Origin: a virus | Taxonomy: Duplodnaviria > Caudoviricetes | Direction: 5' to 3' (one strand) | Virus record (IMG/VR): IMGVR_UViG_3300017747_000930 | Location: 1 to 34,745 of that record | Length of the DNA: 34,745 nucleotides | Part shown: piece by piece, positions 26,637 to 31,466 of the stretch | Position numbering within the stretch: position 1 is the first letter of the stretch | Layout: every line of letters begins with the position of its first letter | The notes under the pieces: generated by a model | Databases searched by the model: none | What the model saw: the letters and a program-made list of their open reading frames with translations, nothing else | What the model was told of the DNA's origin: nothing | Program-made: the position numbers and the translations under genes

Positions 26637-26852
26637 TTAGCTTGCTGAAATGGTTGCTAGTGTATCCACACGCTTCCAGTTAGTTCCGTCTGAAAACGCC
26701 ATTACAGGGCTTCCAGCCGCACCGTTTGATACATAAATCAATTGACCGGCAGGGCTAACAGCAGGAACCGTAGCTACTGTGTAAGCCGTAAACGCAGCCA
26801 AATCTAACGCAGGGTCAGCATAAGCTACCCCAACTGCCTTAGTGTTGCTCAT
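26637..26852 (-). CDS. Small beta-rich protein, possibly a virion fibre/decoration stub
   Basis: YTVATVP...GQLIYVSNG...AFSDGTNWKRV motif typical of fibre modules. Confidence 0.6.
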   Translation of the reverse strand: MSNTKAVGVAYADPALDLAAFTAYTVATVPAVSPAGQLIYVSNGAAGSPVMAFSDGTNWKRVDTLATISAS

Positions 26853-27141
26853 TTTGCATTCCTTCCTCAATAAAGCAAATATCGGCTTCTTGTATTAGCT
26901 GATATTTTTCGCCTTCATGTTCAATTAAAGGCCAATCAAGATAAGACCCATTTCCATACCGAACTTTGTCGCCTACCCTAGTTTCTACTGGTCTGCGGTT
27001 GCCTCGCTTGTCAAACTTGCCAGGCCCTACTGCGACCACTTCGCCCAAGTTAAACGCTTCGGTATTTCTGACAATCAAAATTTCGGATAGTTTCCGAACG
27101 TCTGGCTTGACCAGAATCCTATCTTGCATCGGCACAATCAT
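26839..27141 (-). CDS. groES: GroES-like co-chaperonin (Cpn10)
   Basis: PMQDRILVK, GEVVAVGPG, VGDKVRY, EGEKYQLIQEADI; ATGA coupling at 27138-27141. Confidence 0.92.
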   Translation of the reverse strand: MIVPMQDRILVKPDVRKLSEILIVRNTEAFNLGEVVAVGPGKFDKRGNRRPVETRVGDKVRYGNGSYLDWPLIEHEGEKYQLIQEADICFIEEGMQNEQH

Positions 27142-27353
27142 TTGTAATCGTCGCGTGTGTGTGTATAGCAAATGCCAGCGGTGCGACCAGTATTAAACAA
27201 CTTGTCTGAACCTACAGCATCCTCTTTACCCATAGCAACGCCACCAACACGTTTGCCCATGCGTTCACCCGACATATCAGCTTTCGCTGCACCCTTTGGT
27301 GGTGTAGCACCTGTGGTGCTTGGCACACCCTTCATACCGTCCATCTTGCCCAT
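27138..27353 (-). CDS. Small Gly/Lys-rich protein (71 aa)
   Basis: AAGGA RBS before ATG 27353; first gene after the promoter at 27384-27412. Confidence 0.7.
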   Translation of the reverse strand: MGKMDGMKGVPSTTGATPPKGAAKADMSGERMGKRVGGVAMGKEDAVGSDKLFNTGRTAGICYTHTRDDYK

Positions 27354-28915: not shown

Positions 28916-29106
28916 CGCCAATCCCCTTCATTTCCTCGATTACCTTTGTTCCATTGTTCTCGCGCATCTTTTTCTAATTTGTCGGTGCTTCGCCACTTCT
29001 TTACTTGTTCCAAATAATCAAGCATTGGTTGCCTACCTTTTACCCGCAACTGCAATACATACCTAACCTCACATTGATGCCTAAATTCTTCAGACGAATT
29101 CGGCAC
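28912..29106 (-). CDS. Hypothetical protein (64 aa)
   Basis: GGAG RBS; GTG directly follows the TAA of ORF 29107..30045. Confidence 0.75.
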   Translation of the reverse strand: MPNSSEEFRHQCEVRYVLQLRVKGRQPMLDYLEQVKKWRSTDKLEKDAREQWNKGNRGNEGDWR

Positions 29107-30049
29107 TTAAGATTCTCCATGCTTCTGCTGCACACAATGGAACTTGTCCGTTTCCAATGGCTTTAAGTCTGTCCACCCTAGCGGCCACCCCATCAGCCAC
29201 TCGACCCACGTTGGGTTCAATGTGCCACCAATCGGCTTCTGTTCCATATGTTGAATTGCATTCGGCAATTGCCCCATGTGCGCCCTCAGCCCTTGTTCCA
29301 TTTTCTTTGTTGTTGTCTCGAATCCGTTCGCTCCCTTGTAATCTCTCATTGTTGGGGTTGGCCAATTTCTCTGACCGACTATTGTTTCTAAATTTGGATT
29401 GCGTTTTTTGTTCCATGCTGATTCTTGCGTTATCGTCGCCGCCATTGCTGAACAACTTCTTGGAGTTGTCCAATTCTCTTTTTTCTTTTTCAATGCTTTT
29501 CTGCTGTTGCTCCCACCGTCCAATCCTGTTGTGTTGGGCGTGTGAAAGCTGTCCACGCCATTTGGCGACAATCCAGATTCGGTTCCTTTGATGGTTTGCT
29601 CCAACGTCTGCCGCTCCCAACACTCCCCATTGCGCATCAAACCCCATTGAGGCCAAGTCTCCAAGAACTCGTCCAAGTCCCCTAGAAGTGAGCATTGGTG
29701 AGTTTTCCACGAACACGAACTTTGGTCGTATTTCGTGAATGACCCTTGCCATTTCTGCCCACATTCCTGATCGCTCTCCGTCAATTCCTGCGCCCTTTCC
29801 TGCTGCGCTAATGTCTTGGCATGGAAACCCGCCAGATACAACGTCAACAATTCCGCGCCAAGGTCGTCCGTCAAAGGTTTGAACGTCATCCCAAATCGGG
29901 AAACTCTCAAGAAATCCTTCATTTTGTCTTGCGGCAAGTACGCTTGCGGGATAGGGTTCCCATTCAACTGCGCAGACGGTTCGCCATCCAAGCATTTTGC
30001 CCCCAAGTATTCCTCCACCAGCACCCGCGAAAAGAGCCAACTCATTCAT
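29090..30049 (-). CDS. C5-cytosine DNA methyltransferase, catalytic (alpha) polypeptide
   Basis: Motif I LFAGAGG, IV GGFPCQD, VI FVENS, VIII HQRNRIW, X RLKAIGNGQV; no clear motif IX. Confidence 0.93.
   Translation of the reverse strand: MNELALFAGAGGGILGGKMLGWRTVCAVEWEPYPASVLAARQNEGFLESFPIWDDVQTFDGRPWRGIVDVVSGGFPCQDISAAGKGAGIDGERSGMWAEMARVIHEIRPKFVFVENSPMLTSRGLGRVLGDLASMGFDAQWGVLGAADVGANHQRNRIWIVAKWRGQLSHAQHNRIGRWEQQQKSIEKEKRELDNSKKLFSNGGDDNARISMEQKTQSKFRNNSRSEKLANPNNERLQGSERIRDNNKENGTRAEGAHGAIAECNSTYGTEADWWHIEPNVGRVADGVAARVDRLKAIGNGQVPLCAAEAWRILSAEFV
29107..30045 (-). CDS. Overlapping alternative-frame (beta) polypeptide of the methyltransferase
   Basis: 312 stop-free codons; motif IX-like LNPTWVEWLMGWPLGWT; three WxTP-like repeats; start and stop both abut neighbouring genes. 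Confidence 0.8.
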   Translation of the reverse strand: MSWLFSRVLVEEYLGAKCLDGEPSAQLNGNPIPQAYLPQDKMKDFLRVSRFGMTFKPLTDDLGAELLTLYLAGFHAKTLAQQERAQELTESDQECGQKWQGSFTKYDQSSCSWKTHQCSLLGDLDEFLETWPQWGLMRNGECWERQTLEQTIKGTESGLSPNGVDSFHTPNTTGLDGGSNSRKALKKKKENWTTPRSCSAMAATITQESAWNKKRNPNLETIVGQRNWPTPTMRDYKGANGFETTTKKMEQGLRAHMGQLPNAIQHMEQKPIGGTLNPTWVEWLMGWPLGWTDLKPLETDKFHCVQQKHGES

Positions 30050-30414
30050 GCCACCTGCCTTATCTTCTCTGCAATACGTTTGCGCAACTCGCTGAAGCTT
30101 TCGCCTGGTAGCGGATTAACCCCAACTTCCCTAGCTTTTGCCATAGTTAATTGTTCGTCGCTATACCAAGGCAACGCTGGCGGTTTCTTTTCCTGCATGT
30201 CTAATTCATCTTCCCAACGGCCTTGGTTTAACCAAGTGCTTGCATGCGGAATAAACTCTGTGCCCGTCTCTTTAAGCTTCCAGTATTTAATATGCACCGG
30301 CAAAGCTTCAAACGCAGCTTCTTGCTCGTCTTTAGTCATGCGTTCCCAAATCTTTTGAGCAACACGCTTACTTACCTTTCTTGGGTATAGCTTCCAGAAT
30401 TCGTCAAAAACCAT
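30046..30414 (-). CDS. Replication-initiator C-terminal-domain-like protein (122 aa)
   Basis: FDEFWKLYPRKVSK..A...W and FIPHASTWLNQGRWEDE motifs; no N-terminal HTH. Confidence 0.7.
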   Translation of the reverse strand: MVFDEFWKLYPRKVSKRVAQKIWERMTKDEQEAAFEALPVHIKYWKLKETGTEFIPHASTWLNQGRWEDELDMQEKKPPALPWYSDEQLTMAKAREVGVNPLPGESFSELRKRIAEKIRQVA

Positions 30415-30654: not shown

Positions 30655-30684
30655 ATTATTAAGGCTGCTTAATCTTTACGTCAA
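30655..30684 (-). promoter_or_regulatory. Promoter for the replication/methyltransferase operon with TTAA-N6-TTAA site
   Basis: TTGACG-TAAAGATTAAGCAGCCT-TAATAAT. Confidence 0.65.
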
Positions 30685-30719: not shown

Positions 30720-30997
30720 CAGGCATAGGACAAGACAATTAGGTGGTACTCACCCAATTTAGCCACCTGCTTCAGTAAAGTCGTAAAGTAAAGTCTTGCA
30801 AGCTACTTGTCCCGAAGGATTGTGTTTGATTTCCAGAGGGACGAATTCGGTTCGCCTAGCCGCCACACCACCATTATTCCTCTGTTCCTGAAGTCCCCAC
30901 AATAAGGCTTCGCGCTGTCTTGTCAGTAGGCGCACAGGTTTTCTTGGTAGCCGCCCCTGCAAGGCGCATTGCTTCGTGACCAGTACGGTCTAAACGC
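30720..30997 (-). other. Structured non-coding segment (3' part of an RNA and/or origin)
   Basis: 9-bp long-range inverted repeat, cUUCGg hairpin, several short hairpins and direct repeats; no convincing gene. Confidence 0.45.
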
Positions 30998-31103
30998 AAA
31001 AAAGCCCTTTAGTCTTGGCTCTCTGCGTGTGTGCGCACGTTCCCTTGCGGGTAGAGAACCAAAGCTGAAGGGCTTTGGAGTTTGTCAATGCGCACACATA
31101 GAC
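30998..31103 (-). ncRNA. Putative ~105-nt structured RNA with kissing loops (family not recognised)
   Basis: Promoter upstream; hairpin with UGUGCG loop; 24-bp stem enclosing a GCAA tetraloop hairpin and a CGCACA-loop hairpin; U-tract at the end. Confidence 0.65.
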
Positions 31104-31109
31104 AATTTG

Positions 31110-31138
31110 AATATAACTGTCTTTGTGTTTGCTTGCAA
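31110..31138 (-). promoter_or_regulatory. Sigma70-like promoter for the putative ncRNA
   Basis: TTGCAA-17 bp-TATATT; +1 predicted at about G31103. Confidence 0.65.
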
Positions 31139-31139
31139 G

Positions 31140-31172
31140 AAAAAAATGCCCCAATGGTCGAAATTAGGGCAT
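31140..31172 (-). terminator. Intrinsic terminator after the cro-like gene
   Basis: ATGCCCTAAT-TTCGACC-ATTGGGGCAT then a T-tract on the minus strand. Confidence 0.75.
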
Positions 31173-31229
31173 AAGCCGCCGAAGGAAGCGGTGCGAGAAA
31201 TTAATACTAGTACACTAGCACTATTTGCA

Positions 31230-31466
31230 TCATTTAGTGCGTTTTAGTGAAATTTCAGGCCAAATCCACGCATACATAGCTGGAAACATAGCTTTTCTGG
31301 TCATTAGACCTTCGCTTTTTTCCTCAATCATTGCAGCCAGATAAACCTTTTTATCGTCTGGAATGCCGTTTTTACGCCACACGCATACAGCCGGTGGGCT
31401 TATTCCAAGCCGTTTAGCTATAGCCGTTGGGCCACCTAACATATCAATTATCTGAGAATCATTCAT
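31230..31466 (-). CDS. Cro-like HTH regulator
   Basis: IIDMLGGPTAIAKRLGISPPAVCVWRKNGIP. Confidence 0.85.
   Translation of the reverse strand: MNDSQIIDMLGGPTAIAKRLGISPPAVCVWRKNGIPDDKKVYLAAMIEEKSEGLMTRKAMFPAMYAWIWPEISLKRTK

Follow-up and report, generated by a model that had tools for sequence, protein, structure and literature searches.

By sequence comparison, the non-coding DNA behind the cro-like gene of the window (the whole stretch of 34,745 nucleotides analysed here) encodes a real, uncatalogued RNA module. Two phage RNAs are tied together in it, a leader of about 105 nt with a lock-and-key code in its loops, in the following called the gate, and an ornate second RNA. On the same comparative basis, the gate is an uncatalogued, strongly covarying phage RNA with an exact, variable loop code. 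The module is carried by many uncultured bacterial viruses and likely acts as a self-recognising stop/go switch for the second RNA.

The window is a complete 34.7-kb record flanked by direct terminal repeats. Its genes include a P22-like portal and head-closure, a Cro-like gene and a GroES-like co-chaperonin (phrog_3188; 26839-27171, minus strand), the latter also present in G012; an integrase or a CI-type repressor was looked for in the window and none was found. Two overlapping long ORFs in different frames of the minus strand (29090-30049 and 29107-30045, coding for 319 and 312 aa) both match DNA methyltransferase families (phrog_363, phrog_1008) and presumably resemble the split C5 methyltransferases with an alternative-frame subunit. 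The features of the module and its surroundings are, in the direction of transcription:

31230..31466, minus strand: Cro-like helix-turn-helix gene (PHROGs phrog_8008, E 1e-13; phrog_35, E 8e-9)
31138..31172, minus strand: intrinsic terminator behind the cro-like gene, hairpin and U run retained in L001-L014
31110..31138, minus strand: predicted sigma-70 promoter of the gate, -35 TTGCAA at 31138-31133, -10 TATATT at 31115-31110
31084..31103, minus strand: 5' hairpin H1, code-bearing loop UGUGCG at 31096-31091
31053..31076, minus strand: 5' strand of the long stem P1, partner 31024-31001
31042..31051, minus strand: hairpin P2, CCC-GCAA-GGG, with a GCAA tetraloop
31026..31039, minus strand: hairpin P3, CGUG-CGCACA-CACG, loop 31035-31030 complementary to the H1 loop
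30998..31024, minus strand: 3' strand of P1 and U-tract (six U, 31003-30998), together the predicted intrinsic terminator
30725..30991, minus strand: second RNA, about 265 nt, structured and pseudoknotted, beginning 7 nt past the U-tract of the gate
30991-30918, minus strand: conserved 5' domain of the second RNA, helix 30982-30979/30948-30945, hairpin 30967-30952
30961-30956/30938-30933, minus strand: pseudoknot of the second RNA
30924-30916/30737-30729, minus strand: long-range pairing of the second RNA, followed by the end motif 30729-30725 and an A/T-rich run
30655..30684, minus strand: separate sigma-70-like promoter for the downstream genes
30046..30414, minus strand: 122-aa protein, similarity restricted to the C-terminal portion of O-like replication initiators (phrog_270 positions 179-262 of 383, E 1e-19)

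At the 3' end of the cro-like transcript (31140-31200, minus strand), a C/U-rich hairpin stands ahead of the terminator. It gave a sub-threshold match to the Betaproteobacteria toxic sRNA (25 bits, cut-off 50), five relatives had comparable sub-threshold anti-hemB/suhB matches, and a 3'-UTR-derived anti-Shine-Dalgarno sRNA is a possible reading.

The elements that the initial annotation had read from the window, i.e., promoter, transcription start, H1, the pair counts of P1, P2, P3 and the U-tract, are all present in the sequence. The promoter hexamers are spaced by 17 nt and the predicted start, G31103, lies six nt past the -10 element; judged by score alone, this promoter does no better than chance, since the window has 5 such promoters where 4.8 are expected. 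P1 comprises 24 bp with 20 Watson-Crick, two G-U and two mismatched pairs. Positions 31078-31059 can form an alternative local hairpin in the read-through state (89 % paired, covariation weak). The two 6-nt loops had been described as exact complements, which holds, and the match is longer than noted: H1 and P3 share ten contiguous Watson-Crick pairs, 31098-31089 with 31037-31028. The region folds with a z of -4.5, and none of 200 shuffles was equally good.

Homologues were collected by a Cro search and with two stem patterns that contain neither loop. The 123 parsed loci represent 76 distinct full-length gates; L004, L009 and L101 failed the loop parser and were left out of the counts, their loops match by eye. 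Also left out were loci without the terminator stem, judged by eye to be chance matches (32 of 72 for one pattern, 4 of 75 for another), and five distant cro loci without a gate. Three dropped loci were tested with model R1 and gave no match. The entire P3 loop was exactly complemented in the H1 region of 73 of the 76 homologues, in 28 codes of 5-8 nt, compared with 155 of 5400 cross-code combinations (2.9 %) and a maximum of 19 in a permutation test. The exceptions are L057 with one mismatch, L091 with one G-U pair and L104. The H1/P3 pairing reaches 9-11 bp in 72 of 76 homologues and thereby opens both hairpins. Entropy in the loop columns rises to 1.7 bits; all six variable loop-loop pairs covary (6/6), and the pairs on either side of the code hardly vary.

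The stems covary as well. A model-based alignment with 76 rows showed changes on both sides for 25 of the 34 stem pairs, and 94.7 % of the stem cells were paired against at most 57 % in slid controls. Two-sided changes occurred in all six pairs of H1 (89.7 % paired), all three pairs of P2, whose loop is UUCG, GAAA or longer in homologues, and 14 of 22 pairs of P1 (95 % paired), a stem of narrow length (21-23 bp in 58 of 73) with a nearly invariant core. The RNA postulated from the window is thus borne out in its covarying stems and in its loop-loop pairing. On a tree computed from the columns outside the loops, 45 changes were counted for the 5' loop, 44 for the 3' loop and 45 for the two jointly; switches per pair amounted to 7.6 for loop pairs and to 1.7 for stem pairs, a value lowered by the fact that the tree was built from stem columns. 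Different codes were present in 4 of 25 scaffold pairs with at least 95 % identity, and one code is common to scaffolds only 54 % identical. Longer gate variants with 145-178 nt to the U-tract (L214, L229, L234, L236, L239) carry extra hairpins, a stem of about 30 bp and a loop match of only 5-6 nt.

The proposal that the RNA has its own promoter is upheld by conservation: 66 of 76 gates score at least 15, as against 2.8 % of background windows, and the 17-nt spacing and the six nt to a G are retained despite different hexamers. A U run of five to seven follows in 73 of 73 gates. A conserved antisense promoter was not detected with a crude scoring (9 of 76 gates score at least 15, at scattered positions), so that a counter-transcript is unlikely. 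All 17 genomes fetched hold one copy of the gate. The code turns over fast and in concert and is reused on distant scaffolds, and a counter-transcript is lacking; this suggests that molecules of one and the same RNA recognise each other, by analogy with P4. A further TGTGCGC at 30936-30930 had been listed as a third site. It is present, and the pseudoknot of the second RNA takes it in, but a complement of the own loop occurs within the next 400 nt in only 5 of 75 homologues, versus 8.4 % with foreign loops; the homologues' loops being no better matched downstream than foreign ones, the stretch in the window is a coincidence. Nor did a code target recur elsewhere in the 16 parsed genomes, for five of which the parser used a shortened loop.

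The location behind cro is correct for the window, yet it is not constant among homologues: the Cro-like gene lies 5' of the gate in only a portion of them, the upstream genes vary, and the constant neighbour is the second RNA, found 3' of the gate in 65 of 76. The two are sometimes separated by an insertion, either an ORF or a mobile RNA motif. The second RNA occurs in several sequence types with the 5' domain in common; in this domain, seven of nine pairs show two-sided changes, and a variable 4-bp helix is exact in 45 of 55. Of the consensus pairs in the two large types, 26 of 55 and 27 of 67 have changed on both sides. Directly 5' of the conserved end motif, the window type forms a long-range pairing of 7-9 bp in six different sequences; of 26 rows, 24 were parsed, and all of these have it. 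Both main types terminate in a CCUA(U/A) motif, as ColE1 RNA II does. A peptide encoded in the second RNA was ruled out, the frame being broken between homologues. Eight loci (L079, L082, L097, L118, L122, L149, L155, L167) have 200-400 nt of non-coding DNA behind the gate; this DNA is of other sequence types and escapes model R2.

The association also holds in the reverse direction. A search with the second RNA alone yielded 35 loci, 31 of them distinct, and all 31 had a promoter, a start at GU, a 5' hairpin and a terminator; the loops matched over at least 6 nt in 28 of 31, compared with 11 % when crossed. Among these loci are gates whose P1 is unrelated in sequence to that of the window or much longer. 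Behind the second RNA, a terminator was found in none of 65 loci and a fresh promoter in 41 of 65 (27 % background), and the genes up- and downstream of the module vary widely. With a constant partner, variable flanking genes, no terminator and frequently a new promoter, the second RNA is most simply the regulated output of the gate.

Folding predicts two mutually exclusive states, the H1:P3 duplex and the terminator, and thus a switch. In chains ending just past P3, the duplex had a predicted probability of at least 0.97 in 73 of 73 gates and retained no P1 pair in nested folding. At full length, 69 of 73 gates had the terminator fold as the one lower in energy, with medians of -44.8 against -38.0 kcal/mol. 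As the chain of the window's gate grows, its minimum is the duplex at nt 74 to 98; from nt 102 it is the terminator. The predicted order, duplex first and terminator at full length, would be the design of a kinetic antiterminator. Nested folding does not score a kiss that coexists with P1, which is a pseudoknotted state, hence a compact self-kissed RNA, inert in trans, may exist besides the two folds. Five small-share sequencing runs were uninformative; a metatranscriptome contig of a relative covers the gate and 147 nt upstream, and therefore marks neither the start nor the end of the RNA.

From these results the following mechanism may be drawn. Promoter, H1, the stem of the three-way junction and the U-tract are, in the compared sequences, conserved and covarying, and the loops change together. 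According to the predicted folding, the emerging P3 would pair with the H1 loop over 10-11 bp and trap the 5' strand of the terminator stem, resulting in read-through; with H1 blocked, the more stable terminator would form and an RNA of about 105 nt would be released. Released RNAs would bind nascent leaders of the same code and block their cis pairing, causing a negative feedback with genome number and the exclusion of co-infecting same-code phages; we lean slightly towards this trans feedback. The read-through product appears to be, in nearly all loci compared, a second ornate non-coding RNA. It may act as a pre-primer like RNA II of ColE1, ending near 30725, where the truncated O-like domain or a phage primase-helicase would load the replisome; we regard priming by the second RNA as an evenly balanced proposition. 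The combined reading, a P4-CI-like attenuator that is closed in trans by its own terminated transcripts and rations a predicted ColE1-like primer RNA in phages without a recognised integrase or CI, is the best of those considered; it is graded a little lower than either of these parts, just short of even odds. Of the functions offered by the initial annotation, attenuation and replication control are the likeliest on folding and genome context, while a classical immunity RNA is doubtful. Only tentatively do we consider that the module is a portable RNA-only replicon of phages with a lambdoid layout, in which a same-strand leader, with terminated transcripts that count and silence their like through a code of 5-8 letters, controls a primer RNA that replaces the origin-binding half of the O-like initiator. 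If so, integrase-less phages that co-infect a cell would fall into incompatibility groups according to their codes, and at least 28 orthogonal attenuators would be at hand. If the model is true, abundant uncultured phages without repressor and integrase control their replication and recognise kin by RNA alone, and P4-type self-attenuation is joined to ColE1-type priming; the natural codes would predict which phages interfere with each other and be a source of orthogonal transcription switches.

The components of this mechanism have counterparts in known systems. Phage P4 excises an RNA from the leader, and the pairing of this RNA with seqA brings about termination (PMC4825925). As in CI/seqA, a single leader contains both the regulator and, upstream, its target, the regulator is made from that leader, and premature termination would block replication functions (PMC4825925). 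Unlike P4 CI, the gate has no seqC-like downstream target, its terminator is the regulator's own stem, its carriers are phages in which no tyrosine integrase was found (0 of 22 near-complete records), and the gated unit is mostly an RNA. The attenuators of pT181 and pIP501 and the pseudoknot control of IncI-alpha and IncB resemble the gate in that contact between RNAs through variable loops determines the replication output and a blocking RNA prevents an activating cis pairing (PMC5415839); those regulators are counter-transcribed, in contrast to the gate with its lack of a conserved antisense promoter. As in ColE1 RNA I/RNA II, an RNA of about 110 nt would control a longer, terminator-less non-coding RNA, and the 5-nt end motif and, behind the plasmid-borne second RNA, a DnaA box recur (PMC5043065, PMC3640518; NC_001371). 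In contrast to ColE1, the gate is a same-strand leader and not an antisense RNA, sequence homology to RNA II is lacking, the second RNA measures 230-320 nt and not 550, and its priming role is predicted. The likeliest reading from the modelled folds is that the gate works like the attenuation of P4 CI, pT181-type plasmids and guanidine-IV riboswitches. It stands outside the C4, guanidine-IV and counter-transcribed families.

Evidence on replication points in both directions. In G047 and G048, a 78-aa ORF, a full initiator and DnaB are located behind the gate in place of the second RNA. The window, G003, G006 and G028 have a truncated initiator domain only, G012 has a primase and a helicase but no initiator among 30 scanned proteins, and a scan of 18 proteins in G034 gave no match to any of these three kinds. 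The end motif of the second RNA is identical to the five bases preceding the ColE1 origin (record NC_001371). Beyond these shared five nucleotides, blastn against NC_001371 returned only chance matches outside the origin, model R2 had no match in L170 in the same test of RNA II homology, and a covarying direct repeat of the ColE1-hybrid type was not found in the second RNA. Priming of the ColE1 kind relies on a lasting RNA-DNA hybrid that RNase H cuts and Pol I extends. A version of the second RNA without a gate occupies a gene-free part of the Burkholderia plasmid NZ_CP029827 and of two metagenome contigs (L169:12890-13300, plus strand; L250; L251). This plasmid type has a G-rich end and, 124-137 nt further on, a conserved DnaA box with the same orientation as ColE1's single DnaA box, 85 nt past the origin; the box is present in 3 of 3 plasmid-type copies, two of them nearly identical, versus 0 of 65 phage copies. 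In L169 an upstream hairpin holds the first bases of the second RNA. NZ_CP029827 also encodes a Rep3 of its own at a distance of 4.5 kb, and the L169 locus is a candidate second replicon of this plasmid.

In five phages (G013, G032, G040, G046, G044) the second RNA coexists with a full-length initiator upstream of the module and is therefore not the sole possible origin. In G013 and G032, iteron-like repeats accompany this initiator. Palindromic repeats with 11-bp spacing and a purine-rich run lie within the full-length initiator genes (L175:18020-18270, L189:19110-19290) and are the lambda-like origins of these two phages. The GC skew does not single out the site of the second RNA; it tracks gene direction and, being confounded by it, is uninformative for an origin. 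Other gate outputs are indicated by G033, with the gate between scaffold and capsid genes, by G026, with the gate before a Rha gene, and by L094, in which an HNH gene follows the gate and the second RNA is absent.

The same self-coded attenuator could control a second RNA that is not a primer, i.e., a nuclease-matured, trans-acting phage RNA or a cis antiterminator comparable to put of HK022. This explanation is unlikely, and it is the one with the most in its favour after the primer reading: the module follows complete initiator-helicase operons in G013 and G032 and stands between structural genes in G033, the 3' pseudoknot, with an A/U-rich run beside it, might just as well serve to stop nucleases, and ORFs and the mobile RNA motif have been inserted between gate and second RNA. 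It is at odds with the fresh promoter behind the second RNA in 41 of 65 loci, with an orientation relative to the late genes that is not fixed (G034), and with the plasmid version with its DnaA box and the initiator that takes the place of the second RNA in G047 and G048.

The RNA of about 105 nt could also be a stand-alone structured RNA behind a constitutive, leaky terminator, the loops of which kiss intramolecularly or join the molecules into oligomers, as in the pRNA of phi29. The narrow length of P1, its nearly invariant core and the terminator fold as full-length minimum in 69 of 73 gates are consistent with it. But a pairing of 9-11 bp in 72 of 76 homologues opens both hairpins, the same architecture is built with P1 stems unrelated in sequence and length, in each case ahead of the same second RNA, and the fast code turnover is unexpected for a purely structural contact; we consider such an RNA improbable.

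Still less probable is a switch of the guanidine-IV type, in which a bound ligand or protein stabilises the kiss and causes read-through. Highly conserved loop nucleotides of the guanidine-IV riboswitch (GGAM-1/mepA) form a pocket, and the kiss of a 5' hairpin loop with the loop of the terminator stem competes with completion of the terminator (PMC7736828, PMC11611296). This kiss-versus-terminator logic is the same in the gate, and the nearly invariant pairs flanking the code would fit a sensing switch. Unlike guanidine-IV, the gate has a three-way junction, a hypervariable loop interior with 28 codes of 5-8 nt where the riboswitch needs conserved nucleotides, and no conserved pocket; its 10-bp duplex requires no ligand. 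The context is a phage with a non-coding RNA downstream in 65 of 76 loci, sugE/mepA-type genes were not seen, and transporter genes were absent among the scanned downstream proteins.

The gate shares with C4 of P1/P7 (RF01695) a three-stem junction, a short P2 and a variable P3 loop that gives specificity (PMC5320573, PMC2864571), and a covarying upstream target in the same transcript, in 73 of 76 gates; unlike C4, it has one code site and not a' and b', and no a2/b2 site. With respect to an excision from the leader by RNase P, as in C4 and P4 CI, its alignment is without the GGW start at the base of P1. The C4 model RF01695 matched neither the window region (cut-off E<=10) nor any of 20 loci (cut-off E<=1) nor any of 18 records, and the isrK model did not match at the gate. 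A C4/CI-type immunity RNA of a temperate phage that acts on another target, either downstream or at a distant genomic site, is very improbable: the C4-like shape (alignment rows in the supplement of PMC2864571; PMC5320573), an upstream target like seqA of P4 (PMC4825925) and the Rha gene behind the gate in L091 agree with it, against which stand a downstream target that does not covary (5 of 75 vs 8.4 %), no recurring distant target in the 16 parsed genomes, the absence of RF01695 in 18 of 18 records, no true match to one pattern in bacterial genomes, and 22 near-complete records with neither a tyrosine integrase (0/22) nor an S24 repressor (0/22), which makes classical prophage immunity doubtful.

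Rfam, recommended by the initial annotation as a check on novelty, contained no match, C4 included: at the gathering thresholds there were none in the window and five loci, and sub-threshold matches only elsewhere. A published description of the gate was not found, though the supplements of PMC10690425 (IMG/VR candidate RNAs) and PMC5737381, available in part, may hold an anonymous piece; the available part of bioRxiv 10.64898/2026.09.22.753630 mentions neither kissing loops nor terminators. In GTDB genomes, one exact pattern gave one chance match, a search too narrow to show absence. Among plasmids, NZ_CP029827 was the one match, and four other queries gave nothing beyond that record. Four queries of cultured phages recovered neither the gate nor the second RNA; the matches seen were to the inserted mobile motif. 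This motif of about 95-150 nt, for which Rfam had no match, is structured: its ends are conserved, its middle varies, and a pseudoknot is likely. The motif was seen in L001:2974-3067 (plus strand), L005:1453-1595 (plus strand), L148, L239, L062 and L234, either between the gate and the second RNA or, in L239, inside the second RNA. In the cultured phages of Iodobacter, Alcaligenes and Klebsiella (L246-L249), it is located near tRNA genes or genome ends.
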